The position numbers were made by a program, and so were the translations under genes. From an uncultured Gammaproteobacteria bacterium (GTDB lineage Bacteria; Patescibacteriota; Microgenomatia; PFEM01; DATLAM01): a DNA stretch of 64,000 nucleotides. Location: the NCBI GenBank assembly GCA_964566925.1, contig CAZMIZ010000001.1, positions 71,248 through 135,247 on the forward strand. The letters are read 5' to 3'. The notes under the pieces are model-generated. The model was not told the DNA's origin. It was given only the letters and a program-made list of their open reading frames with translations, and did not search any database. Positions 3,911 to 62,361 of the stretch are shown one piece after another. Each line of letters starts with the position of its first letter. The first letter of the stretch is position 1.

Positions 3911-3942
3911 TTAACCTGCTCAAGAAAATTTGGAAGATTAAA

Positions 3943-4675: not shown

Positions 4676-4719
4676 TTGATTCTTTGAAGGGTATCGCCTT
4701 AATATAGCCAAAAAGAGGT

Positions 4720-4750: not shown

Positions 4751-4836
4751 CCAGTATAGTCTTCCCACTCGCCTTTTCAGTATTATCCATACACGGCTCG
4801 TGGCGCGACCTTACGGGGCAATCGGCGTTGATGATT

Positions 4837-5145: not shown

Positions 5146-5147
5146 CT

Positions 5148-6338: not shown

Positions 6339-6397
6339 AATGTCCTCCTTTTGGCTGGCTTAAACTCTACCTATTTTAATCGAAAGTTGTCAAGATT

Positions 6398-18520: not shown

Positions 18521-19255
18521 TCAAATTTCTACCAACTTCGCTCGGACGATAAGACGTTTTAAGTAAGTTCCCGGAGGAACACAAGTAATAAGACTTAAAT
18601 ATTCGGCGTCGTAGTGCTGTTCTAAAGCCGAAATGTCTTCTGGTCCTACCTCAACCATTTGGATAACTCGATAGCGATAAGAGATTCCATCAAAGTCAAT
18701 AAAAATCTCGTCTCCGCCTTCAAGGGTCGGCAGGGTCGAAAAGATAGTTTTGTAATTTTTGGGGCTAAAAAACTGGGGTAAAACTGAATGGCCAAAAATA
18801 ACGACATTGCCATAATCCCCAGGAAGAGCTGTTCCTGGATAATGAACCAGGCTTTGTTTTAAATCTTCGCCGCCAATTTCAACCACGGCGTCAATAATCT
18901 TCAGTTCAGGAATAGAAAGAGTGTAATGAGTAATTTTGCTGGGCCTGGTGGCTGGTTTTTCGGCTGAAGGAAACCAATTGTCAGGTTTTGTGTAGTCTAC
19001 CTCGGGAATTTTTTCTCCTAAAATCTGTGTTTTCGACTCAGTCGTGGTTCGCTCAGACACAGGCTTAATGAGCTCTTGCTTAAACCTAAAGCTGGTTATC
19101 AATTCATAGGAAATAATTGGTAGAGCAGCATTGGCGAGCAGGAAAAATCCAGCCAAGATCAAGAAAAAAGGGAAGATTTTCCCCGCCCTGATTAAAAGAA
19201 GTTTTTCTCTTGTTTCAACAGGGTTAACAGCTTTAACGTAACGATAAAGTGCCAT
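18521..19255 (-). CDS. Sortase-family transpeptidase
   Basis: N-terminal TM, His motif VVIFGHS and catalytic Cys motif LSLITCVPPGT (TLxTC). Confidence 0.6.
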   Translation of the reverse strand: MALYRYVKAVNPVETREKLLLIRAGKIFPFFLILAGFFLLANAALPIISYELITSFRFKQELIKPVSERTTTESKTQILGEKIPEVDYTKPDNWFPSAEKPATRPSKITHYTLSIPELKIIDAVVEIGGEDLKQSLVHYPGTALPGDYGNVVIFGHSVLPQFFSPKNYKTIFSTLPTLEGGDEIFIDFDGISYRYRVIQMVEVGPEDISALEQHYDAEYLSLITCVPPGTYLKRLIVRAKLVEI

Positions 19256-19259
19256 TGGA

Positions 19260-38397: not shown

Positions 38398-39129
38398 TTA
38401 GAAACCCTTGGCTAATTCTTCAATCAGATTGCCGAAATACCTGACCGTCGGAATAACCCGAGGATAATAAAGCCGTGAAGGACCAATTACGCCAACAGAA
38501 CCGCTTCTTTTCGGCCCGGCTTCAAAATCAGTGAAAACCATCCCACAGGGTTCTAAAAATTCGTAACCCAAATCTTCACCTAAAAGGAGATGGGTTGGTT
38601 CTTCACCAAACGATTTTCCAAAAAGATTGAGAAGGCTTTGAGCTTCATCAAGAATTGAGAGAACAGTCCTGGTAACATCAATGTCATAAAACTCAGGGGC
38701 TTCAAGGATATTGGCATAACCAGCATGATAGACATCACCTGCTTTGGTGGCGGCCACCGCCAGAGCCCGGGTCTGGGCCGCCAAAGCCCGAGTTGCTTCC
38801 TGCATCAATCTGTCAAAGTCGTGCCGGGAATCCCAAACCTTTTCTTTGGCTGCCACTTCTTCAGCTACCGAAAGCTTTTCCTCTTTCATTAATTGGGAAA
38901 CGTAAAATTTAAAGGCTTTAGGGGTGGGGGTTCGGCCAGCTGACGTGTGGAACTGTTTCAGATATTCTTCCTTAGTTAATTGAGCCATCTCGTTCCGGAT
39001 CGTAGCCGGAGAAACCCCAAGTTCATACTTTTTCTCTAATGTCTCTGAGCCCACCGGCTCAGCGGTCTTCATGTATTCTTCAATCAGCGCCTTAAGAATT
39101 TTAGTTTGTCGATCAGTTAAATCAGGCAT
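38398..39129 (-). CDS. hrcA: Heat-inducible repressor HrcA (short form)
   Basis: wHTH …LIEEYMKTAEPVGSETL…. The track start at 39171 is a TTG inside the CIRCE element; the ATG at 39129 is preferred. Confidence 0.75.
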   Translation of the reverse strand: MPDLTDRQTKILKALIEEYMKTAEPVGSETLEKKYELGVSPATIRNEMAQLTKEEYLKQFHTSAGRTPTPKAFKFYVSQLMKEEKLSVAEEVAAKEKVWDSRHDFDRLMQEATRALAAQTRALAVAATKAGDVYHAGYANILEAPEFYDIDVTRTVLSILDEAQSLLNLFGKSFGEEPTHLLLGEDLGYEFLEPCGMVFTDFEAGPKRSGSVGVIGPSRLYYPRVIPTVRYFGNLIEELAKGF

Positions 39130-39151
39130 TTTCAAACCGCGTCCAACGCGG

Positions 39152-39178
39152 TTAGCACTCTTATAACACAACTGCTAA
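39152..39178. promoter_or_regulatory. CIRCE-like HrcA operator: TTAGCACTC-N9-AACTGCTAA
   Basis: Nine of nine left-arm and seven of nine right-arm matches to TTAGCACTC-N9-GAGTGCTAA, 23 nt upstream of the hrcA ATG. Confidence 0.6.
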
Positions 39179-39188
39179 TATTTGTCAA
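39160..39188 (-). promoter_or_regulatory. Sigma70-like promoter for hrcA operon: -35 TTGACA, 17-nt spacer, -10 TATAAG, overlapping CIRCE
   Basis: Minus-strand read: TTGACA (comp. 39183-39188), aatattagcagttgtgt, TATAAG (comp. 39160-39165). Confidence 0.45.
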
Positions 39189-40942
39189 GAGGGGGTTTGA
39201 CAATGAAATTTGAAATACGTAAGATAAATCCAGTGAGAGAAAAAATACTAGCTCTCCTTAGTTTAATCGCTCTTCTGATTGTTTTACCTTTAGCCATTTT
39301 TTTGACTCAACGGCAACAAACTTATCAAAGTCAAGCTTTAATCATTGATCAAGCCCCATATGGAATGAATACCAGCCTCTTTTGGAGCAGCCTCTTTCCA
39401 GAAAATAAATGGGAAACAGCTATTGAGAAAATGGCTCAAGCCGGAGTAAAATTTAATCGAACGACTATTATCTGGTCATTAATTCAGCCGAATGAAGGAG
39501 AATGGAATTGGGAGAAACATGATCGGCTCATTGACCTCCTCACTAGCAAAGGCATTTCTCCTTTAGGTTATTTTTATTTTACTCCCAGCTGGGCTTGGAA
39601 ATACCCTGATTGTGACCAAGCCCGTTGGAGGGGTCGAATTTGTGCTCCTCGATCTGATGCTTGGAGAAATTTCGTCAAAAAAACAGTTGAGCGCTATGGT
39701 TGTGGGCCTGGCGGTAAATGCCAAATCAAATACTGGGAAATTTGGAACGAGCCCAATAACAACAAAACTAACAGCGAAGATTGTAGTGGCGGCGGTATCA
39801 GTCTTTGTGGCACCCTGGACGACTACTTCAGAATGCTTCGCGTAGCTTATAAAGCCATCAAAACAGCCGATCCTAACGCCACGGTGGTCATGGGAGGTCT
39901 GGGGCAATTAAGCACATTAGAAAATAAATTTTTAGATCAGCTTCTAGCAAAAAAATACCAGAATAAACCTTGTGGTGATTTTTTTGATGTCTTTAATATT
40001 CACCATTATTATCAGCCTGGGAACCCCCAATCTGTTTTGAATGGACTGGAAAGAGTTCAACAATTAAAACAAAAATATGGCCTTACTGGTAAACCAGTTT
40101 GGGTCACCGAGTTAAATAGAGCAAGAAATAACTGCACTCCTTTGGCTGAGGCCGCTCAAGATCAAAAAAAAGCGATCACTCTTCTTCTTGAAAATGGAGC
40201 TGCTAAGGTTTTCTGGTTCAAACTTGAAAGCACAGCCGAAGAAGAATGCGGTTATCCAGGGATTCTTCAAAGTAATAGTTATACTAAACTTCAACCACTC
40301 TACCGGGCTTATCAGGCCATTGCTGGAGTTACCCCTATACCGACGTTAATGCCGCCAGGGAGTCTAACCGCCACGCCAACCGCTACACCTTCACCAACAC
40401 CTTCACCAACGCCAACATCAACACCCACGCCCTTACCGACCACCACACCGACAACGACGCCGACTCAAACCCCAAGCACAGCCAATTTAAATTTTCAGAT
40501 AAGGTTGCAGGGAATTGGTCAACAGAGACTAGATAAAACCGTAAAAATTACTCTGAAAAAAGATGACACCCTGGTTGATGTTTATGAAAACGTGGGCATC
40601 AGTTCGGACCAGGATGGTATCTATAGTGGTCGATTAATGAATATTCAGCCAGATACCTATGATATCTACATTAAAGGCTGGGTTCACTTGCAGAAAAAGT
40701 TCGAAAATATTACCCTGGTAGAAGGAGAAAACAGTCAAGACTTTTCCGACGTTATTCTTTTAGCCGGAGATATTGACAACATAGGGAATAACCGGGTCGA
40801 TGCCGTGGATATAGCGATTGTTATTGATCATTATTTTCCAGACACACCCGTAGATAGCCCGGCTGATCTAAATCTTGATGGTAAAGTCAATGCGATTGAT
40901 ATCGGCCTCATGATTGAAAACTATCTTAAACAGGGAGGTTAA
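39182..40942 (+). CDS. Secreted GH5-like (clan GH-A) glycoside hydrolase with Thr/Pro linker and C-terminal type-I dockerin
   Basis: Catalytic acid/base in EIWNEPN and nucleophile in VWVTELN; linker TPTATPSPTPSPTPTSTPTP…; dockerin repeats GDIDNIGNNRVDAVDIAIVI and DLNLDGKVNAIDIGLMIENYL. The track start is a TTG; the ATG at 39203 (MKFEIRK…) with an upstream SD is more plausible. Confidence 0.7.
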   Translation: MSRGGLTMKFEIRKINPVREKILALLSLIALLIVLPLAIFLTQRQQTYQSQALIIDQAPYGMNTSLFWSSLFPENKWETAIEKMAQAGVKFNRTTIIWSLIQPNEGEWNWEKHDRLIDLLTSKGISPLGYFYFTPSWAWKYPDCDQARWRGRICAPRSDAWRNFVKKTVERYGCGPGGKCQIKYWEIWNEPNNNKTNSEDCSGGGISLCGTLDDYFRMLRVAYKAIKTADPNATVVMGGLGQLSTLENKFLDQLLAKKYQNKPCGDFFDVFNIHHYYQPGNPQSVLNGLERVQQLKQKYGLTGKPVWVTELNRARNNCTPLAEAAQDQKKAITLLLENGAAKVFWFKLESTAEEECGYPGILQSNSYTKLQPLYRAYQAIAGVTPIPTLMPPGSLTATPTATPSPTPSPTPTSTPTPLPTTTPTTTPTQTPSTANLNFQIRLQGIGQQRLDKTVKITLKKDDTLVDVYENVGISSDQDGIYSGRLMNIQPDTYDIYIKGWVHLQKKFENITLVEGENSQDFSDVILLAGDIDNIGNNRVDAVDIAIVIDHYFPDTPVDSPADLNLDGKVNAIDIGLMIENYLKQGG

Positions 40943-41511
40943 TGAAAGAAAAAATAAAAATAGCTATTCTCATCTTTCTAGGTTTAATCCTGGCGCTCGG
41001 CTGTATCGCCTGGAGTTTGAAGGGCGAGTGGAAATTAATAAACCAAAACAGGATCGCTGAAATAATTCCCTCGGCTAAAAAAGAAATTCTCCCAGTCGTC
41101 TCCCTCGCCATCGACCCCCAGGAAAAGACCCTCTATCAGGGTGGTGATTTCACGGCTGACATCATGCTTGAAAGTGAAGAGGAACTCTTGGCAGTTGACC
41201 TTTTCCTTTCTTACGATCCCCAAATCCTTAGTCTAGAAAAAATAACACCAGGTAAGTTTTTCCCATCGCCTCAAGAATTTTCCAAAGAAATAAAAGAAGA
41301 GGAAGGGAAAATTTTCTACGCCCTTGGTTCTCTTTCGCCCACTAGTGGTAAAGGGATTCTTGTTTCTTTAACTTTTCAAGGCAAAATGAGCGGCGACCAA
41401 GGAACCGTTGGGCTAACCGAAGAAACTTTAGTCTCAACCAAAGGAGGGGAAGAAGTAAATATCGAGTTGTCGAGAGAGGGCCGATACTCTATACTAGAAC
41501 TAGTGAAATGA
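40942..41511 (+). CDS. N-terminally TM-anchored cohesin-domain protein
   Basis: …GGDFTADIMLESEEELLAVDLFLSYDPQILSLEKITPGKFF… matches the cohesin core (compare CipA …CDFVFRYDPNVLEIIGIDPGDII…). Confidence 0.6.
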   Translation: MKEKIKIAILIFLGLILALGCIAWSLKGEWKLINQNRIAEIIPSAKKEILPVVSLAIDPQEKTLYQGGDFTADIMLESEEELLAVDLFLSYDPQILSLEKITPGKFFPSPQEFSKEIKEEEGKIFYALGSLSPTSGKGILVSLTFQGKMSGDQGTVGLTEETLVSTKGGEEVNIELSREGRYSILELVK

Positions 41512-42317
41512 AGAAAAAAATCTTAGCGGTTGTTATCCTCCTGGTGATGCTGGCCTCTATTCCAGTCGCGGTTTATTTGGTTAAAAAACGACAAGAGATT
41601 CAACTAAGAGCCGCTCCAGCCACTGTTCTTTCTTTAATTCCTGCCGCTGAAGCCTATGACACTGGTGAAACTTTCACCGTTAACGTCTCTATTGATACCG
41701 GAGAAAATCTAGTGGTCAGCGCCGATATAGTTCTAAGCTACGACCCAACCATTTTAGAGGCCCAAAGTGTCGTCTTAGGAAGCTTCCTTCCCAATGCTAA
41801 CGAAATTAATAACATTGTCAATAACGATACCGGGAAAATTACCTACAGCTTCTATACAATGCAAGAAAATGCCCAACAAGGGGAAGGAATCATTGCCTCA
41901 ATCTCTTTTAAGGGTATCGCGGCCGGAACCAGTTCGGTGATTTTCGACGAAACTCAAAGCGCGATTGGCGGCATTAACGAAAGCCAAAACGTCCTGGCCG
42001 ATACCGTCCTTGGCTCTTATCTAATTGCTGAGGCTCAAGCAACGGCCACTGTGACCCCCACTCCCACTATTGAGGGAGATGAAAATGGTGTTGGTGGTGG
42101 AGAAGAGCCTACTGCGACCGCAACTCCAACTCCGACTGAAGAAGATGAAGAAGAGCCAACCGCTACGCCCACCCCAACGACGACTGAAGAAGAAACACCC
42201 ACGCCGACCACTGCTGAAGAACTTCCAGAAGCCGGCATTCCCACCCCCACCTTTTTCCTTTTGATCGGAGGCGGAATCCTACTGATCTTAAGTTTTTTTC
42301 GCCTTCTGTTATACTAG
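41508..42317 (+). CDS. Cohesin-domain protein with Thr/Pro/Glu linker and C-terminal LPEAG sortase-type sorting signal
   Basis: Paralogous cohesin core …VVSADIVLSYDPTILEAQSVVLGSFLP…. C-terminus AEELPEAG (42222-42236), a hydrophobic segment and R-containing tail. Confidence 0.6.
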   Translation: MKKKILAVVILLVMLASIPVAVYLVKKRQEIQLRAAPATVLSLIPAAEAYDTGETFTVNVSIDTGENLVVSADIVLSYDPTILEAQSVVLGSFLPNANEINNIVNNDTGKITYSFYTMQENAQQGEGIIASISFKGIAAGTSSVIFDETQSAIGGINESQNVLADTVLGSYLIAEAQATATVTPTPTIEGDENGVGGGEEPTATATPTPTEEDEEEPTATPTPTTTEEETPTPTTAEELPEAGIPTPTFFLLIGGGILLILSFFRLLLY

Positions 42318-42326
42318 TCTCGGAAA

Positions 42327-43733
42327 ATGAAATCTCGTTTAAACCGAAGACAGTTTGTCTCCTTGATTGGTTTAATTTTTCTTCTCTCACTTCTACCCAA
42401 AACCTTAAACCTCGTCCAAACAGTTCAATATTATTTAAGCGAGGCAACTGGGGTTAAAGCCAACATTGTGGTTGACACCAAGGCAGTTTTAGGACCCATG
42501 GAAAAGCCTTGGCAAGCCTTGGCCCAGGGCGGCGAAGAAAAAGAAGAAATGCTCGAACCGGTGATCAATGAGATTCGTCATCTCTATCCCCGCTACCTTC
42601 GGATTGACCATCTTTACGATTTTTATGATGTTGTTGGCAGGACTGATGGGATGCTTGTTTATAATTGGGTAAGGCTGGACAAGATCGTCGACGACATTCT
42701 TGCGACTGGCGCCGCTCCTTTTTTTTCTCTTTCTTATATGCCCGCTGTAATTTCTTCAAATGACAGCGTCAGCTCACCAATCAGCTGGGAAGAGTGGTCT
42801 CAAGTAGTCGAAGCGACGGTTGAACATTTCTCTGGACGAAAAGAAAAAAACCTCTCCGATGTTTATTATGAAGTCTGGAATGAGCCGGATCTTTTTGGTC
42901 AATGGAAAATTGGTCAAGAACCAAACTATTGTTCTCTCTATCAATACGCTCTCTTGGGAGCTTCTCGGGCAGAAAATGTCAATTCATTCAAAATCGGAGG
43001 GCCAGCCATTACCTCCCTGGACACAGACTGGCTTAATCAATTTCTAGATTGTATTGAGAAGAACAATCTCCGGCTTGATTTTATTTCTTGGCACCGTTAT
43101 ACCCGCCAGTTAGAGGTTTTTGAAAAAGACCTGAAAAGGCTTAACCGTTGGCTCTGGCAACACCCCCGATTTCTTAATTCAGAAAAAATTATCACCGAGT
43201 GGGGGTCCGATCCGGGAAATCATGACAACCACGACTCTTTCTTCGATGCCGTCCATACAATTGCTGTTATCCGCCAGCTTCTAGGTCAAGTTAATCTTGC
43301 CTTCAGCTTTGAAGTTAAAGATGGGCTTGATCCCGAAGGAAGAGAATATTGGGGCAGATGGGGGCTGCTAACCCATGAATCTTTTGGAAAACATAAAAAA
43401 CCCCGCTATTATGCCCTAGAATACCTAAATAAACTGGGAAAGGAGAGACTTTCTCTCTCAGGTGAAGGCACTTGGGTCAGGGGATTGGCCACCAAAGAAG
43501 GAGAGACAATCATTCTTCTTTTAGTTAATTATGACCCTTATTCTCGCCACTACGAAGAGGTTCCTCTTACTCTGGCCAACCTTGAACAAGCCACTTATTC
43601 TTATCAGGAGACCTTTCTTTTGGGAATTAATAAAACTAGTAAAGAAAAAGTTACTGCCCCCGGCCTAATAAAAAAAATTACCCTGCCGCCCAACAGTGCT
43701 GTCTTGATTCAATTAATTAAAGAGCCATTTTAG
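42327..43733 (+). CDS. Membrane-anchored clan GH-A glycoside hydrolase (GH39-like)
   Basis: YYEVWNEPDL acid/base, IITEWGSDPG nucleophile, FISWHRY; N-terminal signal anchor. Confidence 0.55.
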   Translation: MKSRLNRRQFVSLIGLIFLLSLLPKTLNLVQTVQYYLSEATGVKANIVVDTKAVLGPMEKPWQALAQGGEEKEEMLEPVINEIRHLYPRYLRIDHLYDFYDVVGRTDGMLVYNWVRLDKIVDDILATGAAPFFSLSYMPAVISSNDSVSSPISWEEWSQVVEATVEHFSGRKEKNLSDVYYEVWNEPDLFGQWKIGQEPNYCSLYQYALLGASRAENVNSFKIGGPAITSLDTDWLNQFLDCIEKNNLRLDFISWHRYTRQLEVFEKDLKRLNRWLWQHPRFLNSEKIITEWGSDPGNHDNHDSFFDAVHTIAVIRQLLGQVNLAFSFEVKDGLDPEGREYWGRWGLLTHESFGKHKKPRYYALEYLNKLGKERLSLSGEGTWVRGLATKEGETIILLLVNYDPYSRHYEEVPLTLANLEQATYSYQETFLLGINKTSKEKVTAPGLIKKITLPPNSAVLIQLIKEPF

Positions 43734-47075: not shown

Positions 47076-47387
47076 ATGAAAAAAAGATATTGGAACCGAG
47101 ACCTTTTGATCTTATCAATTTTAACCGTTATTACTGTCTTTAGCTGGGTTACTTTCGAGGTCTATCGAGCCCTTACTCAAATCGAAATCCCCGCTGTTCT
47201 CAAACAACAAATTGAACCACTTAACCCTACTGTTCAAACAGAAATCATCCAAGGTTTAAAGTTAAGAAAATCTTTTTCTACCGACGAGTTGGTTTCTCCC
47301 TCTAACTTACCCGGGCCCAGCCTCGAAGAAGAAACCACGGCAGCCACAGAAAGCAGTGAGGGAGAGGAAGTTTCGGTTATTGATTAA
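47076..47387 (+). CDS. Small bitopic protein with acidic C-terminus
   Basis: N-terminal TM; overlaps the next gene by 32 nt. Confidence 0.35.
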   Translation: MKKRYWNRDLLILSILTVITVFSWVTFEVYRALTQIEIPAVLKQQIEPLNPTVQTEIIQGLKLRKSFSTDELVSPSNLPGPSLEEETTAATESSEGEEVSVID

Positions 47388-48780
47388 AACCTTTATTATT
47401 AATAAAGGAGGTTCTTTGTTAAAAATAAGACGATTCCCCACGATTATCGGGCTCTTAATTCTTTTAGCTGGCTTAGGCGGGGGCCTCTTTTTGGTCCAAA
47501 AAGCTCAAACATTTTTTCTAAGAGCCGAACCTGGAAGTGCTCCTAACCAAATAAGAATTACTAACATTACTGATCAAAGTTTTACTGTTTCTTGGACGAC
47601 CGATAAAAAGGTGGCTGGCCTGATTCAGTTTGGAGAAACATCTAGATTGGGTTCCGTTCTCGCTGACGATCGCGATCAGCAAGCCGGAGAGATCAGCTTG
47701 TTCTTCACCCACTACGTCACGATCAAAAATCTCAAGGCAGAGACTGATTATTATTTCAAAATTCGCTCCGGCTCAAAAATTTATGATCAAAACGGCCAGC
47801 CTTATCAAACCACCACTGCTCCTACAATCAGTTTCTCTTCGCCCCCAAACGATCCTGCCTATGGAAAGGTAATTGACCAGAGCGGGCAATCAGCCCAAGG
47901 AGCAATCGTTTATCTTTCCCTCGCCAACACGACCCCCCAATCAGCCCTAGTCCAAGAATCAGGTAATTGGGTCATCTCTCTTAATTCGGCTCGATCAGTT
48001 GACCTCAGTTCTTACGCAACCTATGACAAGGCGGCTTCAATAGAAGAAATCCTTGTTCAAGCCGAACAGGGCCTAACAGCCACAGCGGTCACCACCACTA
48101 AAAACGATAGTCCTGTCCCCACCATCACTCTGGGACAGAATTATAATTTTAGGCAAACCAGTGAAGAGTTAGAAATAACCGATCAAGAGAAAAAGGTTAC
48201 CCAAGAAGCGACCCAAGAAGCAAGCCCAACCCCCACTCCAACTTCAGGTTTTTCAGTGGAGTCACCAGAAGCTACCACGTCCCAAGAGTTAGCCATTATT
48301 AATCCGGATGAAGAGGAAGATGTTAATACCCAAAAACCGGCTATTCTAGGAACGGGACCAGCGGGAATTACGCTGGAAATCACTATTGAGTCTACCTCCA
48401 CCTATACCGGAACGGTGACTATTGATGATCAAGGAAATTGGGAGTGGAGTCCGCCTGTTGATCTAGAACCAGGCGAACATACCGTAACCGCTACCTTCAC
48501 CGATGAAGAAGGTAAGAAACATACCGTCAGTCACACTTTTGTTGTCTTGGCAGCTGGCAAAGATGAAGCTCCAGCTATAGAAGCAACCCCTTCGGCTGAA
48601 GCCAGCCCGTCACCAACCCTCACCCCCACTCCAATTCCCGCCACTAGAACCGCCATTCCTTCTACAGAAGGAGGTGTTCCCGATTCTGGATACTTGACAC
48701 CCACTTTCTTAGTCTTCATAATGGGTTTAGGACTTATTTTGATCGGTTTTGTTATAAAGAAGTTCGCTGCCCATGGATGA
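47356..48780 (+). CDS. Surface protein with N-terminal TM, Fn3-like domain, Ig-like region and C-terminal TM/KK anchor
   Basis: Fn3 signature IRITNITDQSFTVSWTT…YYFKIRS; C-terminus …TEGGVPDSGYLTPTFLVFIMGLGLILIGFVIKKF. Confidence 0.45.
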   Translation: MRERKFRLLIKTFIINKGGSLLKIRRFPTIIGLLILLAGLGGGLFLVQKAQTFFLRAEPGSAPNQIRITNITDQSFTVSWTTDKKVAGLIQFGETSRLGSVLADDRDQQAGEISLFFTHYVTIKNLKAETDYYFKIRSGSKIYDQNGQPYQTTTAPTISFSSPPNDPAYGKVIDQSGQSAQGAIVYLSLANTTPQSALVQESGNWVISLNSARSVDLSSYATYDKAASIEEILVQAEQGLTATAVTTTKNDSPVPTITLGQNYNFRQTSEELEITDQEKKVTQEATQEASPTPTPTSGFSVESPEATTSQELAIINPDEEEDVNTQKPAILGTGPAGITLEITIESTSTYTGTVTIDDQGNWEWSPPVDLEPGEHTVTATFTDEEGKKHTVSHTFVVLAAGKDEAPAIEATPSAEASPSPTLTPTPIPATRTAIPSTEGGVPDSGYLTPTFLVFIMGLGLILIGFVIKKFAAHG

Positions 48781-50416: not shown

Positions 50417-51034
50417 ATGGAAAATTTAAAGAAAAATTGGCTTTTAATTCTAACTGGGGCAACCACCGTTGTTTTGGGAATGATTGCGGTGGTCACCGCC
50501 ATTAAGCTTTATCAAATCGGAAAAGAACCAGTGGCCCCCACTGCCCCAGCCCCAGCCCCAGCTCAAGAAATAACCCCGACTCCTGAGTTGCCTTGTACCT
50601 ATAGTTTTTGTCTTGCTAGCCCAACCCCCACCGAAACCCCAACCGAAACACCAACCGAGACGCCAACGGAGACGCCAACTTCAACCCCTATTCCTGAATG
50701 TTGGGACACCTGTGAAAATGATGATGACTGTCCTGATGAATTGAGCTGTGAAGAGGTGGAAACAGATGTTTTCCGCTGCGCTAATCCTGATTGTCCTGAA
50801 GAAGAAGACTGTGAATGTCCAACCGAAACACCAACCGAGACGCCGACGGAAACCCCGACAGGAACAGTGACCGAAACCCCAACCGAGACGCCGACAGGAA
50901 CAATAGTGTCGACCGCGACACCCACTTATGTTGCTGAAGCTGAACTGCCTGAAGCGGGTATCAGCTGGCCCACTATCGGTGGCCTACTTGGAGGCGTTCT
51001 CATTCTCGTCATTTCTATTCTCCTTGCCTTCTAA
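50417..51034 (+). CDS. TETPTE-repeat, Cys-rich surface protein with C-terminal LPEAG sorting signal
   Basis: N-terminal TM; (TETP)n repeats flank CWDTCENDDDCPDELSCEE…CPEEEDCEC; C-terminal AELPEAG (50945-50959) with a hydrophobic tail. Confidence 0.55.
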   Translation: MENLKKNWLLILTGATTVVLGMIAVVTAIKLYQIGKEPVAPTAPAPAPAQEITPTPELPCTYSFCLASPTPTETPTETPTETPTETPTSTPIPECWDTCENDDDCPDELSCEEVETDVFRCANPDCPEEEDCECPTETPTETPTETPTGTVTETPTETPTGTIVSTATPTYVAEAELPEAGISWPTIGGLLGGVLILVISILLAF

Positions 51035-51063: not shown

Positions 51064-52311
51064 ATGAGGGTGGCTATTGTTGGTGGCGGCTTTACTGGTT
51101 TAACGATCGCCTATCGACTTTCACAAAAAAGTCATCAGGTGGTTATCTTTGAAAAGGAAAGTCAAGTTGGCGGTCTAGCTAGCGGGTTTAAAAAGAGGGG
51201 CTGGGAATGGTCACTTGAGAAGTTTTTCCATCACCTTTTTACTTCGGATCAAGCAACCAAAGATTTAATTCAAGATTTAGGGCTTAACAAAAAGCTTTTC
51301 TATCTCCGGCCTAAAACTTCAATTTTCAAAAACGACAAAATTTTTCAGTTCGACTCACCCCTTTCTCTCTTAACTTCTCCTGATCTTTCAGTTTTAGAAA
51401 GAATGAGGGCTGGTTTAGCTCTGGCCTATCTCAAAACAACCCCCTTCTGGCAACCCCTAGAAAAAACGACTGCTTCTGCTTGGCTAACCAGAAACATGGG
51501 CAAAAACGCTTATCAGACCCTTTGGCAACCCCTGCTCCAAGGAAAATTCGGCGAGCTGGCTAACCAAATCCCTGCTTCCTGGTTTTGGGCGAGAATCAAG
51601 AAAAGAAGCACCAAGCTCGGCTATCTTCAGGGCGGCTTTCAGATTTTAATAGATAAACTAGCTGAAAGGGTGGAAAAAAACGGCGGGAAAATCTTCCTCA
51701 ATCATGAAGTTAAAAACCTTGAAGAGCTTAACAATTTTGACCAGATCATTATCACTGTCCCCGAAGAAACATTTTTAAAAATCACTTCTAATTTACCTAA
51801 AGATTATCAAAGCCAGCTGAAAAACTTTAAAATGTTAGGGGCGCTTAACCTGGTCTTAGTTCTAAAGGAAAGGTTTCTAACCGACAAGACCTACTGGCTG
51901 AATATCAACGAAGCGGAATTCCCTTTTGTGGCCGTAGTCGAACACACTAACTTCATTGACCCGAAATATTATGATGGTCAGAGAATCCTTTATGTTGGCG
52001 GCTATTATCCTCAAAATCACCGCTATCTTAACGCGAAAAAGGAACAAATTTTTAAGGAGTGGTTGCCTTATCTCCAAAAAATCAATCCTAAATTTAGCCA
52101 CCGCTCGACTCTCGCTTCTTATCTTTCAGTTAGTTTATTCGCTCAACCGGTTATCCCGATTAACTACTCAAAAACCATTCCTCAATTCAAAACACCTCTC
52201 CCCAATGTTTATCTAGCCAACATGCAAATGGTCTACCCTTGGGATCGGGGAGTCAATTATGCAATCGAGCTCGGAAAGAGGGCAGCTAATGAAATTCTCA
52301 AAGAAATTTAA
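51064..52311 (+). CDS. FAD-dependent enzyme resembling UDP-galactopyranose mutase (Glf); alternatively another member of the amine-oxidase/PPO superfamily
   Basis: VAIVGGGFTGL Rossmann fold; FFHHLFTSD (cf. Glf AHIFHTND); YQTLWQPLLQGKFGELANQIPASWFWARIK (cf. Glf YQALIKGYTEKQWG..ELPAFIIKRIP); YLQGGFQILIDKL (cf. YQGIPVGGYTKLIEKM). Confidence 0.45.
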   Translation: MRVAIVGGGFTGLTIAYRLSQKSHQVVIFEKESQVGGLASGFKKRGWEWSLEKFFHHLFTSDQATKDLIQDLGLNKKLFYLRPKTSIFKNDKIFQFDSPLSLLTSPDLSVLERMRAGLALAYLKTTPFWQPLEKTTASAWLTRNMGKNAYQTLWQPLLQGKFGELANQIPASWFWARIKKRSTKLGYLQGGFQILIDKLAERVEKNGGKIFLNHEVKNLEELNNFDQIIITVPEETFLKITSNLPKDYQSQLKNFKMLGALNLVLVLKERFLTDKTYWLNINEAEFPFVAVVEHTNFIDPKYYDGQRILYVGGYYPQNHRYLNAKKEQIFKEWLPYLQKINPKFSHRSTLASYLSVSLFAQPVIPINYSKTIPQFKTPLPNVYLANMQMVYPWDRGVNYAIELGKRAANEILKEI

Positions 52312-53962
52312 AAAAGGGTTAGCTTTTTTTAAAAAAAATTGGCCCGAGATAGTTCTCATTCTTATCTTCTTTCTTTTCTCTTGGTGGTTAATGTGGCACA
52401 CCTTTAATTATAAAGAGGGAACTATTTACGTTGCCTCAAAAGCTTGGAGCGACTTCGCCGCCAACATTCCTTTAATCCGCTCTTTTTCCTGGGGAAATAA
52501 TTTCCCCCCCGAATACCCTCTTTTCCCAGGCGAGCCAATCCGCTATCACTTTCTTTTCTATCTCTTGGTTGGTTTTCTAGAAAAAGTCCATCTTCCTCTT
52601 AGTTGGGCCTTAAACTTGCCTAGCTTCGTCGGGCTTGGGAGTCTCCTAGCGATGATTTATTTTTTCTCTAAATTTCTTTTTAAAAAACGAGGCGTGGCCT
52701 GCCTATCGGTCTTCTTCTTCCTTTTTAATGGCTCGCTTTCTTTCTTAGAATTCTTTCGTCAGCAACCTCTCTCTCTAGTCACGCCGTTGGAAATAATAGC
52801 CAATAAACAGTTTCCTTCTTTTGGGCCTTACGATGGTAAAATAGTCAGTGCCTTCTGGAACCTTAATATCTTTACTAATCAACGCCATCTAGCCGGTGCC
52901 TATACTCTTACTCTTTTTGTTGTCTATCTTCTGGTTCGCTCAGCCAAAACTAAAAAACGGCTGTCTTCTTGGCAAATTTTGATTTCAGGAATCATCTTTG
53001 GGCTACTTCCCTTTTACCACAAAGCTGTCTTCTTAATGTTGGGGGTAATCATGGTTTGGCTTTCGCTATGCCTTCCTAAATTGCGACCGTCAATCTTTTT
53101 CAGTTTAATGATTGGTGGTATTTTAGCCCTCCCTCAGGTCCTTTATCAGTTAAAGGGTACTCAGTCATTTTTCGTAATCAACCCCGGCTATTTAGTTGAT
53201 CGGCCTTTAACTATTCCTAAATTTCTTACTTATTGGTTTTTCAATCTTGGTTTAGGGATGTTTTTGATCCCGCTTGGTTTTCTTTTTTCAAAAAAAATTG
53301 CCAAAAAAATCCTAGCCGGCTTTTTTCTCCTGTTTCTAATTGGTAATTTATTCCAATTCTCTCCGGAGATGGCGGCTAACCATAAATTTTTCAACCTCTT
53401 TTTGATTGTCGGCAATATGTTCTCTGCTTGGGCGATCTATCATCTTTGGCGAAAAAATATCTTAGGAAAATCCCTGGTACCCATCCTGGTTTTCTTGCTT
53501 ATCTTTTCTGGAATGATTGACTTTTTCCCGATTAAAAACGATTCTCTGATGACCGTGGCTGATGCTCCAAAAAACCCGGATATCTTTTGGATTAAAGAAA
53601 ACACTCCGCCTGATGCTATTTTTTTAAACTCCTCTTATATCTATCATCCAGCCAGTTTGGCTGGCCGAAAAATTTTTCTTGGCTGGCCTTATTTTGCTTG
53701 GTCAGCTGGCTATGATACCTATCAACGGGATAAGCTAATAAAAGAGCTCTTCCAAGGGAAAAGCCAACTGGCCATCTGTTCTCAGCTCTTAGAAAATAAA
53801 ATCGACTACCTCGCTCTGGGGGCGAAAGGGAAAACTGATCTTCCCGTTAATTTTTCCTTTTTTGAAAAAAACTTTATTCCGGTCTATCAAAACCAAGAAA
53901 CCGAGTTAAGGATTTTCTCGGTTAACCAAAGTTGTTATCATTTTTCAAAGCAAGATGAATAA
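52259..53962 (+). CDS. Large polytopic membrane protein, putative GT-C-fold glycosyltransferase
   Basis: 567 aa with more than 10 TMs and a long first extracytoplasmic loop; overlaps the upstream gene. Confidence 0.35.
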   Translation: MQSSSERGQLMKFSKKFKKGLAFFKKNWPEIVLILIFFLFSWWLMWHTFNYKEGTIYVASKAWSDFAANIPLIRSFSWGNNFPPEYPLFPGEPIRYHFLFYLLVGFLEKVHLPLSWALNLPSFVGLGSLLAMIYFFSKFLFKKRGVACLSVFFFLFNGSLSFLEFFRQQPLSLVTPLEIIANKQFPSFGPYDGKIVSAFWNLNIFTNQRHLAGAYTLTLFVVYLLVRSAKTKKRLSSWQILISGIIFGLLPFYHKAVFLMLGVIMVWLSLCLPKLRPSIFFSLMIGGILALPQVLYQLKGTQSFFVINPGYLVDRPLTIPKFLTYWFFNLGLGMFLIPLGFLFSKKIAKKILAGFFLLFLIGNLFQFSPEMAANHKFFNLFLIVGNMFSAWAIYHLWRKNILGKSLVPILVFLLIFSGMIDFFPIKNDSLMTVADAPKNPDIFWIKENTPPDAIFLNSSYIYHPASLAGRKIFLGWPYFAWSAGYDTYQRDKLIKELFQGKSQLAICSQLLENKIDYLALGAKGKTDLPVNFSFFEKNFIPVYQNQETELRIFSVNQSCYHFSKQDE

Positions 53963-55361
53963 ACTCCTTTTCTTTTCTCTTTCGTTCTTCTCGGTTTTAT
54001 TCCTACCTTTCAGAGGAGCGCTTCCTTATTTGGATGGCAACATTGACTTTGTCCAGGTAAACGATTTTTACGCCGGTGGTCTCAGCCAATATTTTCAGAA
54101 CTGGAACACGGTTCATCCCCCTCTCAAACTTATCTTAACCACTGTTTTTTTTCAGTTAACCGGATTAAATCCGTCTAGCTACATTCTGGTCGGCTTTCTT
54201 TTTGGTTTTCTTGGAATCATCGCTCTTTTCGCCTTATCCCGAACCCTTTTTAACTCCCAGGTAGCCGGGCTAAGCGCTTTTTTTCTGGCGACCTCACCTT
54301 TGTTTCTGTCCACCGGAATTTTTAGTTTGCGAGACTATCTTTTAACTGTCCTGATTCTGATTTCTTTGGCTTTTTATTCCCAGAGTAAATTTCTTGGCTG
54401 CGCTTTGACTCTTTCTTTGGCTATCTTAACTAAGGAAACCGGCTTAATTTTAGCAGGGATTATCCTGGCGATCGAAGCTCTTTACTTTATTAAAGCGTTG
54501 ACTAGAACCAAGCGGTTCAATCAAGGTTTTCACCTTTTTCTTTTTTTCATTCCTTTTTTTACTATTTCGGCCTGGCAGTTTTTCTTAAAAGCCAACCAAA
54601 AGACTTCTTGGAGCGAATGGCTTTTTACTGAAACCAGCAGCCAGGGAACCTATCAAACGATCCTTAATAACTTGATTACCTTCCGTTTTTTAAATCAGTA
54701 CGCTTACCAACATTGGCGGCAATTGTTCTTTCTAAATTTTAATTGGGTTTACTGGCTGATCACTTTAGGGGGAATTTTTCTCTTTCTCTTAAATAAAAAT
54801 CGCCGTCAGAGGATCGGAAAAAACCTGATTAAAGGAACCAAAAAAGCCAAAACCCTGCTCGTTATCAGTTTGTTTTTCTTTGGTTATCTTTTGACGGTCT
54901 TGAGTCTCCAAACCTTTACCATTCCCCGATATGCTTTACCTTTAATCCCTTTTCTTTTAATGACCACCGCATTGATGATCAGCCGGCTAATGATTAAGGG
55001 GCCAGTCTTTAAATGTGGTCTTTCCATTTTCCTTAGTCTAATGGTTTTTTTCAGCTTGTTTACTTCGCTTGATCCAGTATCTGTCAGTCTCTGGGGAAAA
55101 ACAGAAATTTTAGGAGAAAAACTTTACGCCCTGAACCATCATTTGGCTGGCAATGACGGTATCACCTATAATGTTCAGTACCTTTTCTTGGTTAAAAAGC
55201 GAACTAGAGAAATTTTAGCAGCTAACGAGCAGGCAAGACCAGTGGTTTCCAAAGAATGCCGTTGGCTTTTCCCAGACCCAAGAAACGATCAAAAAATGAT
55301 AATAATTTTACAACTGAAAAACTTGAACCAAACTAATCTTTGCCTATCAGAAAATGAATAG
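53955..55361 (+). CDS. Polytopic membrane protein, putative GT-C (PMT/ArnT-like) glycosyltransferase
   Basis: 468 aa, ~11 TMs; 8-nt overlaps on both sides. Confidence 0.35.
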   Translation: MNKLLFFSLSFFSVLFLPFRGALPYLDGNIDFVQVNDFYAGGLSQYFQNWNTVHPPLKLILTTVFFQLTGLNPSSYILVGFLFGFLGIIALFALSRTLFNSQVAGLSAFFLATSPLFLSTGIFSLRDYLLTVLILISLAFYSQSKFLGCALTLSLAILTKETGLILAGIILAIEALYFIKALTRTKRFNQGFHLFLFFIPFFTISAWQFFLKANQKTSWSEWLFTETSSQGTYQTILNNLITFRFLNQYAYQHWRQLFFLNFNWVYWLITLGGIFLFLLNKNRRQRIGKNLIKGTKKAKTLLVISLFFFGYLLTVLSLQTFTIPRYALPLIPFLLMTTALMISRLMIKGPVFKCGLSIFLSLMVFFSLFTSLDPVSVSLWGKTEILGEKLYALNHHLAGNDGITYNVQYLFLVKKRTREILAANEQARPVVSKECRWLFPDPRNDQKMIIILQLKNLNQTNLCLSENE

Positions 55362-57378
55362 CGATTTAATGATTGTTTTCTTTTGGTGGTTTTTACTTTT
55401 TATCCTGGGAATGGCTTTCCTTCCCTTAACTTTCCTTATCTTTCAAAAATTTTTAGATAAAGGCTATGCTTTTAGTAAGATCATTGGCCTTCTTTTTATC
55501 TCTTATTTTGTCTGGCTTTTGGGAAGCCTTAAAATCTTCCCCTTTTTCTCAGCCACTGCTTGGTTAATGGTGATTCTCTCCGTCATCGGCAACCTTTTTT
55601 TGCTTCAAAAAAACCGTCGTCTGTTCAGAAAGTTTTTCAGAGAAAGTGCGAAGATCTTCTTTTTTGAAGAAATTCTCTTTCTTTCTGCCTTAACTTTCTG
55701 GGCCTATATTCGCAGTTTCCAACCTAGCATTCAGGGGTTGGAAAAATTCATGGATTTTGGCTTTGTCAATTCTCTTCTCCGGACTCGCTTTTTCCCTCCC
55801 GCCGATATGTGGTTGGCTGGTGAAACCATTAACTATTACTATTTTGGTCATTTAATAAGTGCCGTTCTCACTAAATTATCAGGACTCAACCCCGCTCTTA
55901 CCTATAATCTAATGATCGCCACCCTATTTGCTTTTACCTTCACGGCTGGATTTTCCCTGGGGAGTGCCTTCGCTAGTCAGCTGAAGTTAAAGAAAAAGCG
56001 TCTTTTTCTGAGCGGAATAATGACTGCCCTTCTCCTCTCTTTAGGCGGCAACTTACACCCACTATATTATTGGTTTACTCATCAGGGTTTCGGTGGTTAT
56101 TGGTATCCTGACGCCACTAGATTTATTGTGGAAAAATTTGGGGCCATCGACAATACCATTCATGAATTCCCTTTGTACAGCTTCGTCGTTGCCGATCTGC
56201 ACGGGCATTTGATTAATCTACCCAATGTTCTCTTGATGCTGGCTTTAGCTTTTGTCATCAGTCAAAATCTGGACACCAAGAAAAAAATGATTGAGTTAAA
56301 ACGGGCAATTTTTCTTCTCGCCTTCTGTTTGGCAATCGCTTTCATGACTAATGCCTGGGACTATCCTATTTATCTTTTAGTCGCTGGGGGCGTCATTTTA
56401 CTCTTTAATTGGTTAAAGTGGCCCTGGAGAAAAGCTCTCATTAGGACAACGACCATTGGTTCTTTTTTGGTAGCTGGCAGCATTCTTTTTACCCTCCCTT
56501 TTCACCTTCATTTTAAAAGTATTGCCCAAGGGGTTGGTTTGGTTGATTTCCATTCTCCTCCCTGGATGCTTTTGGTTCTTTGGGGATTCCCTTTAACTAT
56601 CAGCCTAACTTTTTTGGTTTTCCTTTATTGGCAAAAAAGAAAACACCAATCAACTGATTATTTTATCCTCGTTCTTCTGGTTGTTTCCTGGTTTTTAATT
56701 CTCATTCCGGAGTTTGTTTATGTCAAAGATATCTACATTCATTCCCATCAACGAGCTAACACCGTGTTTAAGCTTACCTACCAAGCCTTCGTCATGTTCT
56801 CCTTGGCCGGGGGCTATGTCTTCATTAGAGCTCTCACCAGTCTTCGGCTTAAACTGAGGAGGTTCTTCTTCTTAATCATCTATTCATTCCTTTTGATTCC
56901 CATCTTTATTTATCCCTATTTTGCCATCCGCTCTTACTATAATCTTAAAAACTATCAAGGTCTTTACGGTCTCTCTTATCTTAAAACCAAATATTCCCAT
57001 GATTATCAGGCAATTCTTTGGTTAAATCAAAACGTTAAGGGCCAACCAGTTTTGGTGGAGGCTGTTGGCGAGAGCTACACTGACTTTGCTCGAGTTTCTG
57101 CTAATACTGGTTTGCCTGCGGTTTTGGGCTGGCGGGTTCATGAATGGCTCTGGCGCAGTTCCTTTGATGAACCGGGAAAAAGGACTGAAGAAATCCGCCA
57201 AATCTACGAGTCAGAAAGTTTAGAAGAAACCAAAAATCTCTTAGAAAAATATCAAGTCGAATATCTTTTTCTGGGAAGTTTAGAGAGAGAACAATACCCC
57301 CATCTTATAGAAGAAAAATTTGTCTGGCTGGGTAAGATGGTCTTTTCTTCAGGACCAACAAAAATCTACCAATTCTAG
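55354..57378 (+). CDS. Large polytopic membrane protein (674 aa), GT-C / DUF2298-like
   Basis: More than 12 TMs; loop motif EKFMDFGFVNSLLRTRFFPPADMWLAGETINYYYFGH; C-terminal soluble domain. Confidence 0.35.
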   Translation: MNSDLMIVFFWWFLLFILGMAFLPLTFLIFQKFLDKGYAFSKIIGLLFISYFVWLLGSLKIFPFFSATAWLMVILSVIGNLFLLQKNRRLFRKFFRESAKIFFFEEILFLSALTFWAYIRSFQPSIQGLEKFMDFGFVNSLLRTRFFPPADMWLAGETINYYYFGHLISAVLTKLSGLNPALTYNLMIATLFAFTFTAGFSLGSAFASQLKLKKKRLFLSGIMTALLLSLGGNLHPLYYWFTHQGFGGYWYPDATRFIVEKFGAIDNTIHEFPLYSFVVADLHGHLINLPNVLLMLALAFVISQNLDTKKKMIELKRAIFLLAFCLAIAFMTNAWDYPIYLLVAGGVILLFNWLKWPWRKALIRTTTIGSFLVAGSILFTLPFHLHFKSIAQGVGLVDFHSPPWMLLVLWGFPLTISLTFLVFLYWQKRKHQSTDYFILVLLVVSWFLILIPEFVYVKDIYIHSHQRANTVFKLTYQAFVMFSLAGGYVFIRALTSLRLKLRRFFFLIIYSFLLIPIFIYPYFAIRSYYNLKNYQGLYGLSYLKTKYSHDYQAILWLNQNVKGQPVLVEAVGESYTDFARVSANTGLPAVLGWRVHEWLWRSSFDEPGKRTEEIRQIYESESLEETKNLLEKYQVEYLFLGSLEREQYPHLIEEKFVWLGKMVFSSGPTKIYQF

Positions 57379-60885: not shown

Positions 60886-61397
60886 TCGCCACTACAACAA
60901 AAAGCTTGAGTGTAAAAAGAACATGGCGGACAAAAAGTCTGACGACAATCTCTTGGTTTTAAGTGGCGGTAGTCTCGTTTTGATTCATAAATTATCAACC
61001 TGGGATCACTGGCCACTACCTCTTTTAAATAGCCTTTAGGACAATCACAGCATTGATCGATCCTGATCGCCAAAAGACAATCACTCTTCGCCTGACAAAA
61101 CGGAAGCGGTTTAAGGTTTAAACTGAAAGGGATTTGAGGCCAAAAAACCAAAAGAAGGGCACCAACAACAGAAATGAAAGCTAAAATCATTTCTACTAAT
61201 AAAAGCGCTTTAATGAGGGGAGTGTGGGGAGCTTTAAGGCTAAAATCAATCGGCAGAAGACGACTATCAAAAGGCAACCAGCTAATGGGTTTCTCTCTCA
61301 TCCTCTTTATGATACCATAAAAAGAGAAATGCTCGTCAGGGAAGTCCAAGAGAAAGAAAAAAAGCGGTTCAATCAGGTGGCGACCCACCCCCTTCAA
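60846..61397 (-). CDS. Hypothetical Cys-rich (9 Cys) membrane-anchored protein; the real start is probably internal (~61190)
   Basis: …CQAKSDC…QCCDCPKG…DCRQTFCPPCSFYTQAFCCSGECQ. The 5' part of the ORF overlaps fem on the other strand. Confidence 0.3.
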   Translation of the reverse strand: MKGVGRHLIEPLFFFLLDFPDEHFSFYGIIKRMREKPISWLPFDSRLLPIDFSLKAPHTPLIKALLLVEMILAFISVVGALLLVFWPQIPFSLNLKPLPFCQAKSDCLLAIRIDQCCDCPKGYLKEVVASDPRLIIYESKRDYRHLKPRDCRQTFCPPCSFYTQAFCCSGECQGITLLGTISK

Positions 61398-62360: not shown

Positions 62361-62361
62361 A

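Follow-up and report, generated by a model that had tools for sequence, protein, structure and literature searches.

A probable cohesin–dockerin cassette for docking at the cell surface in a bacterium of the Microgenomatia

The 64-kb stretch of DNA analysed here (contig CAZMIZ010000001.1; hereafter the window) carries four co-directional open reading frames between positions 39182 and 43733 of the plus strand, for which an initial annotation had proposed a cohesin–dockerin system. In order, they encode a glycosidase with a docking tag at its C-terminus (G1), two single-cohesin proteins (CohA and CohB, the products of G2 and G3) and a second glycosidase, of family GH39 (G4). The genes form a translationally coupled operon that extends from 39203 to 43733: the stop codon of G1 and the start codon of CohA share the sequence TAATG, CohA and CohB overlap in ATGA, and 9 nt separate CohB from G4, which converges on murJ (279.6 bits with the MurJ equivalog model, cut-off 235.55). 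This gene content, as first proposed, and its arrangement in one operon are borne out by Pfam matches and by the gene junctions, and the peptide motifs that had been quoted were all found in the translations. With the Pfam hidden Markov models (HMMs), Cohesin (twice), Dockerin_1 and GH39 all scored above their curated cut-offs. The cohesin–dockerin observation is thereby confirmed, and we regard the four domain identities as practically certain. We also consider it probable that the four genes serve together as a cohesin–dockerin cassette for docking at the cell surface, in a member of the Microgenomatia.

The tag at the end of G1 had been described as a Thr/Pro linker followed by a canonical type-I dockerin with a duplicated calcium loop. 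The linker and two F-hand loops are indeed present, but the assignment to type I does not hold, and one of the loops is not canonical. Between linker and dockerin lies a β-sandwich of ~95 aa, an X module, that the initial annotation did not mention. An AlphaFold2 (AF2) model of this tail (G1 aa 434-586, computed from alignment A4 of 26 family members) showed one rigid unit of seven strands followed by two helices, with a predicted local distance difference test score (pLDDT) of 97.1 and a predicted TM-score (pTM) of 0.90. The ten best PDB matches of this model in Foldseek were all type-II X-module–dockerin chains, from Clostridium thermocellum CipA/CipB and Acetivibrio cellulolyticus ScaA (~165 columns, TM-score 0.59-0.66), and no type-III entry was found among its PDB fold matches at E <= 1e-3. 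Compared to PDB, the profile of A4 aligned across X module and dockerin with 4u3s_B and 4wi0_B (E 6e-12) and 2b59_B (8e-9), whereas type-I dockerins scored lower (E 1e-7 to 1e-3) and matched the dockerin part only. By these best-match comparisons of sequence profile and modelled fold, G1 ends in a dyad of X module and dockerin (XDoc) that is closest to type II. We rejected a bare or canonical type-I dockerin because an X module is fused to it and because its best matches are type-II XDoc dyads; the Pfam family name 'Dockerin type I' spans all dockerin types.

Within the dockerin, the Pfam Dockerin_1 match covers G1 aa 535-579 with 23.3 bits (cut-off 22.9). Loop 2 (DLNLDGKVNAID) is canonical, and loop 1 (GDIDNIGNNRVDAVD) contains a 2-residue insertion that is common to its closest relative, from locus L007, in alignment A4 (related loci are designated here by L and a number). 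Loop 1 (DIDNIGNNRVDAVD) retains D/N at all five positions 1, 3, 5, 9 and 12. The calcium-loop pattern of a dockerin occurs once in all six frames of the window. In a comparison of 130 family members, identity between the two repeats at the variable helix positions was 0.50 within proteins and only 0.19 between them, and 0 of 2000 permutations reached the within-protein value. Internal repeat symmetry of this sort is seen in dockerins able to bind in two orientations.

Two cohesin-like genes had been reported after G1, and both products matched Pfam Cohesin (PF00963, cut-off 24.1), CohA with 37.1 bits and CohB with 49.4 bits. The two proteins are paralogues, as judged from a BLASTP identity of 26% (E 2e-17) and an hhalign match of 99.6% over 138 columns (E 6.5e-25). 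The profile of CohA found the PDB cohesin 4ums at E 1e-5. For CohB, the AF2 model showed a core of 11 strand segments with a pLDDT of ~90, followed by a stalk of ~60 aa rich in Thr, Pro and Glu with a pLDDT < 50. The jelly-roll fold that a cohesin should have was checked on this model: its top 50 Foldseek matches in PDB were all cohesins, type II first (3ghp, E 6e-10; target-normalised TM-score <= 0.76), with chain 4wi0_A in fourth place. The CohB profile likewise pointed to A. cellulolyticus type-II cohesins, those of the 'adaptor protein B' scaffoldin (E 1e-8), and the predicted fold of CohB is thus that of a cohesin closest to type II. Among solved structures, XDoc and CohB have their nearest relatives in protein families that have been co-crystallised as a cohesin–XDoc complex (4wi0, 4u3s), which by analogy lends indirect support to the two being partners of each other. 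When the window was searched with local HMMs for cohesin and XDoc, two cohesins and a single XDoc were found, and no more.

The two cohesin proteins would be anchored differently, as first described: CohA by an N-terminal transmembrane (TM) helix and CohB by a C-terminal LPEAG sortase signal. A lipoprotein nature of CohA was considered and rejected: although its LALGC sequence looks like a lipobox, L001 and L003 have F at position -1, and L011 and L012 lack the Cys. The sorting signal of CohB gave a weak match to the NCBIfam model EF0750_LPXTG-type. With TIGR01167 it scored 13.8, below the cut-off of 15.9, and we therefore take LPEAG to be a variant motif. Among the orthologues of CohB, one carries LPETG and others LPDAG or LPESG. 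A sortase is encoded in the window (Table 1), and so is a second protein that ends in ELPEAG and a TM helix (50417-51034, plus strand; small, Cys- and Thr/Glu-rich). Because of these two genes and the motif variants of the orthologues, LPETG among them, LPEAG looks like the sorting motif of this organism, and the original assignment has gained in strength. The sortase of the window is the enzyme we would expect to process the LPEAG of CohB. A third protein (47356-48780, plus strand) has fn3, CarboxypepD_reg and Big_13 domains and ends in VPDSG, a TM helix and KKF; it lies with the second in a pilN/pilO-linked cluster. By eye, its N-terminal fn3 domain resembles the payload of the XDoc proteins of L001, L003 and L007. 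The sortase gene itself stands directly 3' of a gene for a 753-aa protein with a weak Baseplate_J match only, and RuvX and YceG follow (18521-21521, minus strand).

Table 1. Features of the docking cassette and the sortase gene in the window.
Feature	Position	Strand	Evidence or characteristics
G1, glycosidase with docking tag, predicted secreted or membrane-tethered	39203..40942	+	579 aa; Pfam; public collection; ribosome-binding site 39190-39196
G1 N-terminal leader	39203..39337	+	Basic n-region, ~20-residue hydrophobic helix, QRQQTYQSQA
G1 catalytic domain, predicted clan GH-A (beta/alpha)8 retaining glycosidase	39338..40336	+	NEP (acid/base), TEL (nucleophile), 10 Cys
Thr/Pro-rich linker, probable site of chimeric junction	40337..40480	+	DNA homology breakpoints: L013 ends 40119, L007 begins 40460
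X module, ~95-aa seven-strand beta-sandwich packed rigidly on dockerin (model)	40481..40765	+	AF2, Foldseek, profile alignment
Dockerin with two F-hand Ca2+ loops and a helix after each	40766..40939	+	Pfam Dockerin_1, alignment A4, AF2 helices 108-116 and 138-147, repeat symmetry
CohA (G2), N-terminal TM helix (aa 6-26), ~30-aa tether, single cohesin	40942..41511	+	Pfam; hhalign to CohB; PDB 4ums; conserved in all related loci
CohB (G3), leader, single cohesin (aa ~38-176, nt 41619-42035), Thr/Pro/Glu stalk, sorting signal	41508..42317	+	Pfam, AF2, Foldseek, profile
CohB C-terminal cell-wall sorting signal	42222..42314	+	LPEAG, 20 hydrophobic residues, Arg
G4, GH39 glycosidase, N-terminal membrane anchor, no dockerin	42327..43733	+	Pfam GH39; PDB; conserved beside murJ in L004, L007, L011, L012
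Sortase	18521..19255	-	Pfam Sortase 82.1 bits; TIGR01076 60.3 (cut-off 39.35); IFGHS and SLITC motifs

The cassette recurs at one site in related genomes. A word-index search with CohB returned ten homologues only, and in L001, L004, L007, L011 and L012 a payload–XDoc gene, CohA and CohB stand beside murJ (minus strand), rpsT, pilN and pilO, with the GH39 gene present or absent between CohB and murJ; in L003 the contig ends within CohB, and the trio alone is visible there. Between the window and L007, amino acid identity is 94.7% for GH39 (G4), 87% for CohB, 84% for XDoc and 71% for CohA, and no identity was found between the payload of G1 and that of L007. CohB is 63-67% identical in L001, L003 and L004, and in the distant L011 and L012 it was detected by the local HMM only. 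These last two loci (L011 is from a Candidatus Gottesmanbacteria metagenome-assembled genome, MAG) hold five genes at the site, encoding a cohesin-like–XDoc protein, CohA, a cohesin–fn3–XDoc adaptor, a CohB orthologue that ends in QPVTG or QIVTG and a TM helix, and GH39. The initial annotation had called the locus a minimal enzyme–scaffold system, which holds for this locus but not for the relatives, where there are cohesin–XDoc adaptors as well as XDoc proteins at loci free of cohesins. L004 has an extra CohB-like gene (11039-11407) 3' of the pilus-linked genes and a second XDoc-ending gene (1-159) 5' of the cassette; the number of plugs and sockets thus differs between genomes. A scan of GTDB genomes with the CohB alignment found one locus only, in a MAG labelled 'Bathyarchaeia'.

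The XDoc tag marks a family that counts at least 225 clusters. While a word-index protein search with the 153-aa XDoc tail gave no match, a full HMMER search of 1.84 billion cluster representatives found 1088 matches at E <= 1e-3, 225 at <= 1e-10 and 22 at <= 1e-30. Among the best 151, the dyad ends 12 or fewer residues from the C-terminus in 142, and both X module and dockerin are matched in 140. We ran Pfam on 95 members and found highly varied payloads: cohesin in 17, Glyco_hydro_cc and fn3-type domains in 5 each, beta-helix in 3, and further NHL, Laminin_G_3, peptidases S8, C1 and S9 and others, with many members giving no match. Cohesin and XDoc stand in one chain in these 17 members and in the adaptor-like proteins of L011 (2007-3338) and L012 (10001-11326). 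Such proteins could form head-to-tail chains if each cohesin binds its own kind of XDoc. Distant XDoc proteins are found in L093 and L094: L093 encodes a 1011-aa Laminin_G_3 lectin with XDoc (10001-13036) and L094 two tandem XDoc proteins of 1101 and 479 aa (1809-6546). Since no cohesin gene was found within the fetched flanks of either, docking in trans must be common.

Comparison with two further loci suggests how G1 acquired its tag. DNA homology between the window and L007 (88% over 7.4 kb) starts at 40460, 21 nt before the X module, and no match was found 5' of that position. L013, in turn, matches the window from 38417 to 40119 at 71% DNA identity. It consists of hrcA on the minus strand followed by a gene for an enzyme of 539 aa, which shares 64% identity with G1 in the catalytic domain and has a leader and a Thr/Pro linker of the G1 kind, a different C-terminal beta domain and no cohesins at its locus. 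None of 80 loci of relatives of the G1 catalytic domain has a cohesin or XDoc, and this catalytic domain is found in none of the 150 best XDoc representatives, which led us to reject a fusion of a GH-A domain with XDoc as a common architecture. L003 represents an unfused state, with hrcA, three genes and then an fn3-type XDoc protein. These sequences show G1 to be a chimera, and in their simplest reading an hrcA-adjacent enzyme gene was joined to the XDoc of the cassette within the low-complexity linker at 40337-40480.

G1 had been called a secreted GH5-like hydrolase. The leader and a clan GH-A catalytic domain support the general description, but not the specific family: the GH5 match is partial (profile positions 124-266 of 272, 40.0 bits) and is equalled by GH42 (40.2 bits), with GH39 (30.4 bits, also partial) and Glyco_hydro_cc as further matches, and the nearest solved relatives in PDB are GH39 xylosidases (E 5e-9). 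The catalytic domain keeps NEP and VTEL motifs. The defensible label is clan GH-A, GH39-like by its nearest solved structures, and 'GH5-like' is too specific. For G4, described as a GH39-like membrane-anchored hydrolase, the assignment is firmer: it scored 104.6 bits with Pfam Glyco_hydro_39 (cut-off 26), matched solved GH39 beta-xylosidases at E 1e-26, and has an N-terminal TM helix and, in its NEP and ITEWG motifs, both catalytic glutamates of clan GH-A. We considered G1 as a paralogue of G4 and rejected this, as identity over the first half is only 22%.

The leader of G1 is a predicted signal peptide or signal anchor. Similar leaders are found in CohB, G4 and the protein at 47356-48780 (39203-39337, 41508-41620, 42327-42440 and 47356-47530), each with basic residues, a hydrophobic helix of ~20 residues and the motif (K/R)-x-Q...(R/Q/S)-A, which is also visible in the consensus of 95 XDoc proteins (alignment A3). 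It is tempting to speculate that this shared leader may be a lineage-specific signal or cleavage motif.

On its 5' side, the operon is divergent from hrcA. In the list of open reading frames G1 runs from a TTG codon at 39182 to 40942. We think that it is more likely to start at the ATG at 39203, because the exact 579-aa product from this codon is on record in a public collection; a GAGGGGG ribosome-binding site stands 7 nt 5' of it. The claim that the hrcA promoter overlaps the 5' end of G1 is correct only if the upstream TTG is the start, and not with the ATG at 39203. A CIRCE-like operator, TTAGCACTC-N9-AACTGCTAA, occupies 39152-39178, within the 73 bp that separate the start codon of hrcA (ATG at 39129, minus strand) from that of G1; it has 2 mismatches and a chance expectation of zero. 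A good minus-strand promoter, TTGACA(39188-39183)-17-TATAAG(39165-39160), overlaps it, as does a weak plus-strand promoter 5' of G1, TTAGCA-17-TAATAT. Because the palindromic operator also overlaps this weak promoter, heat-shock control of the cassette is conceivable. We rejected a functional link between hrcA and the cassette because their adjacency is not conserved: in L007 an RHS gene takes the place of hrcA, and in L003 three genes intervene. The gene of L007 (76-4863, minus strand), directly 5' of the cassette, encodes a 1595-aa RHS/YD-repeat protein of the polymorphic toxin type. An Rfam search gave no match in the window.

The initial annotation had suspected a small-genome bacterium, and RpoB comparison agrees with this: the RpoB of the window is 69-74% identical to proteins of Patescibacteria group, Candidatus Pacebacteria, Chisholmbacteria, Shapirobacteria and Microgenomates group bacteria. 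From these identities, and because a relative of the cassette is found in the Candidatus Gottesmanbacteria MAG, we assign the window to a bacterium of the Microgenomatia, within the candidate phyla radiation (CPR/Patescibacteria). With their very small genomes, CPR bacteria rely on other cells or on external polymers, and their surface equipment is little known. The MAG labelled 'Candidatus Bathyarchaeia archaeon' (L003/L010, GCA_035527435.1, DATLAM010000030.1, and P0204) contains a bacterial hrcA-grpE-dnaK, the cassette and a bacterial RpoB 73% identical to that of the window; judging from these sequences, its label or binning is wrong and the contigs are CPR.

Neighbouring genes of the cassette have housekeeping or Gram-positive-type envelope functions (dnaK/grpE/hrcA, nusA, infB, pnp, ftsK, alaS, murJ, LytR_cpsA_psr, FemAB, YceG, sortase). 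An envelope-glycosylation/wall cluster occupies 52259-58460 and 61224-63183, with a 567-aa membrane protein, PMT_2, DUF2298 (357 bits), LytR_cpsA_psr and two FemAB-family genes. At the other end, positions 1-4600 have a low GC content (0.36-0.39 vs ~0.43-0.46 elsewhere) and six open reading frames of 140-220 aa, one alone with a Pfam match (DUF4352); this may be a variable or acquired region.

From the modules described above we infer that XDoc binds CohA and/or CohB, that binding depends on Ca2+, that CohB is processed by sortase and that the complex is located at the cell surface. In the mechanism we propose, G1 would be exported by means of its leader, and its C-terminal XDoc dyad would bind Ca2+ and plug into a single-cohesin anchor. 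CohB would be the favoured anchor: sortase would link its LPEAG to peptidoglycan, and the Thr/Pro/Glu stalk would space the cohesin from the wall. CohA could be an alternative or additional anchor, held at the membrane on a short tether, and G4 a co-expressed companion GH39 enzyme with a membrane anchor of its own. The outcome would be one or two retaining glycosidases held outside a cell that has few genes to spare. Seen across the relatives, whose payloads include beta-helix, fn3-type, lectin and protease domains and another cohesin, XDoc probably serves as a general address label. Payloads could be exchanged by recombination in the low-complexity linker, as appears to have happened in the genome of the window.

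Several points weigh against this picture. Being long hydrophobic helices, the leaders may act as anchors that are not cleaved, in which case G1 would be tethered at both ends. The Pfam score of the dockerin is marginal, and its loop 1 carries the 2-residue insertion, though D/N fill every ligand position. The partner of XDoc is not singled out between CohA and CohB, with CohA diverging faster than CohB and XDoc, and the extra cohesin–XDoc adaptor of L011 and L012 leaves the wiring ambiguous. There is one dockerin only in the whole window. Finally, since the GH39 gene is missing in L001 and L009, it is not an obligatory part of the cassette.

The docking reading can be taken further, to a lineage-wide 'plug-and-display' arrangement of Microgenomatia and related CPR bacteria, in which the conserved XDoc tag is carried by hundreds of secreted proteins and the anchors form two tiers, membrane-bound CohA and wall-linked CohB, at a fixed site. 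Fast exchange of surface enzymes and adhesins through Thr/Pro linkers could then tune the interaction with a host or substrate, and a very strong cohesin–XDoc bond of the type-II/III-like sort could act as a mechanical link to a partner cell or polymer. We put this forward as a tentative possibility that may well prove wrong. The more specific role in remodelling of the host wall, which had been suggested for these genes, we hold to be unlikely.

An unlikely alternative is envelope maintenance, in which the glycosidases act on polymers at the surface of the cell itself (secondary wall polymer, exopolysaccharide or S-layer glycan) and docking merely positions G1 in the wall for a housekeeping task, neither nutritional nor directed at a host. 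The cassette does keep its site beside murJ across divergent relatives, which would fit such a task, but this synteny is possibly just inherited gene order. The window is also rich in envelope genes (LytR_cpsA_psr, FemAB, PMT_2, DUF2298, YceG), and membrane-anchored GH39-like enzymes act on the cell's own polymers in some exopolysaccharide pathways. G4 is moreover the most conserved gene of the operon between window and L007, yet this is the gene that L001 and L009 lack. The docked payload, moreover, is an entirely different one from one close relative to the next (GH-A barrel, beta-helix, fn3 module, cohesin), which would not be expected of a housekeeping wall enzyme.

It is also possible, though improbable, that the cohesins and XDoc are not mutual partners: the cohesins could be adhesins or bind XDoc proteins encoded elsewhere, and the dockerin of G1 could bind the cohesin of another cell, such as a host or neighbour, or a non-protein ligand. 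The XDoc proteins of L093 and L094 with no cohesin gene nearby suggest that docking in trans is normal for the family, the chains that combine cohesin and XDoc indicate that its wiring can be complex, and broad cross-species recognition has been stated for type-II cohesins, in a statement quoted in PMC13487519. Extra clients that dock in trans are, however, compatible with docking within the cassette as well. In the six distinct loci whose contigs still cover this region, the XDoc gene is strictly adjacent and translationally coupled to both cohesin genes, and the nearest solved relatives of the two sides are a cognate pair; both observations argue for docking within the cassette. A genuine plant-biomass cellulosome with the window locus as its core, which the clan GH-A and GH39 hydrolases with cohesin and dockerin modules and the JGI name 'beta-xylosidase' of the G4 orthologue might bring to mind, is very improbable and we rejected it: the four proteins include no multi-cohesin scaffoldin, no carbohydrate-binding module (CBM) and no recognised cellulase family by Pfam, the window holds one dockerin and two monovalent cohesins only, and the family has proteases, lectins and fn3 modules among its payloads instead of a set of cellulases.

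The docking cassette provides a testable set of parts for the CPR surface, namely the XDoc tag, the CohA and CohB sockets and a sortase with its LPEAG motif. Conservation of the cassette extends over a CPR class, while near relatives demonstrably differ in the payload. If the binding is true, it would explain the dockerin-domain proteins in CPR genomes, and the XDoc tag could be used to list the displayed surface proteome from sequence alone. The cassette also combines a type-II-like XDoc dyad, placed straight on an enzyme, with predicted sortase anchoring in a lineage that does not belong to the Firmicutes. To specialists in cellulosomes, this is one more non-cellulosomal cohesin–dockerin system and a moderate surprise.

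In architecture, the cassette comes closest to Ruminococcus flavefaciens ScaE, whereas its modules have their nearest counterparts, in sequence as well as in fold, in the type-II cohesin–XDoc pairs known from A. cellulolyticus and C. thermocellum. ScaE is a sortase-anchored single cohesin that binds the XDoc dyads of ScaB, CttA and single proteins (PMC5934362, PMC11557425). It shares with the cassette a monovalent cohesin with a C-terminal LPXTG-type signal, a C-terminal XDoc ligand and the tethering of single proteins. However, the R. flavefaciens modules are type III, and the XDoc of CttA has five helices and large inserts (PMC5934362), whereas the dyad of the window has a simple two-helix dockerin that matches type II. 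Moreover, the window locus has no higher-order scaffoldins, has a second, membrane-anchored cohesin, and belongs to a CPR bacterium.

The type-II pairs (A. cellulolyticus ScaA XDoc with ScaB cohesin, PDB 4wi0 and 4u3s; C. thermocellum CipA XDoc with SdbA/ScaC cohesins, PDB 2b59 and 5g5d) are the best profile and fold matches for both partners, at an identity to the modules of the window of only ~13-20%. In these pairs as well, the X module is contiguous with the dockerin and packed on it, and binding attaches to cell-surface anchoring proteins. Their XDoc is part of a multi-enzyme scaffoldin and their anchors are of the S-layer homology (SLH) kind, while in the window XDoc is placed directly on the enzyme or payload and the anchors are TM or sortase-linked.

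A simple pair of adjacent genes is known from Cellulosilyticum lentocellum, in which the single-cohesin protein ClcC and the single dockerin–GH5 protein ClcD were shown experimentally to form a functional complex (PMC13487519). As in the window, a cohesin protein is encoded next to a dockerin-bearing clan GH-A enzyme, but ClcC has a CBM3 and targets the substrate rather than the cell, in a cellulolytic Firmicute, and the pair has one cohesin instead of two and neither an X module nor an anchor of the sortase or TM kind. Cohesins and dockerins are widespread outside cellulosomes too, according to Peer et al. 2009 (PMC3035643) as cited in PMC13487519. Examples are the glycosidase complexes of Clostridium perfringens and a cohesin of Archaeoglobus fulgidus (PDB 2ozn/2jnk, 2jh2 and 2xdh, which were among our fold and profile matches). 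They resemble the cassette in docking outside plant-fibre degradation, with glycosidases that act on the glycans of other organisms as clients, and differ from it in that neither a conserved operon of XDoc, TM-cohesin and sortase-cohesin nor payload swapping has been described for them.

In the literature searched we found no paper on a cohesin–dockerin cassette in CPR bacteria. The nearest describes SEML1_0315 of the saccharibacterium Southlakia epibionticum, an essential envelope protein with a dockerin domain, for which the authors propose host-glycan targeting for adhesion or degradation (PMC10633639). Compared by description only, it is likewise a dockerin-bearing envelope protein of a CPR bacterium, but the paper describes no cohesin partner or cassette. 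The features of interest that are specific to the lineage studied here are the CPR host, the XDoc placed directly on variable payloads, the side-by-side TM and sortase anchors and a demonstrable swap of the payload.

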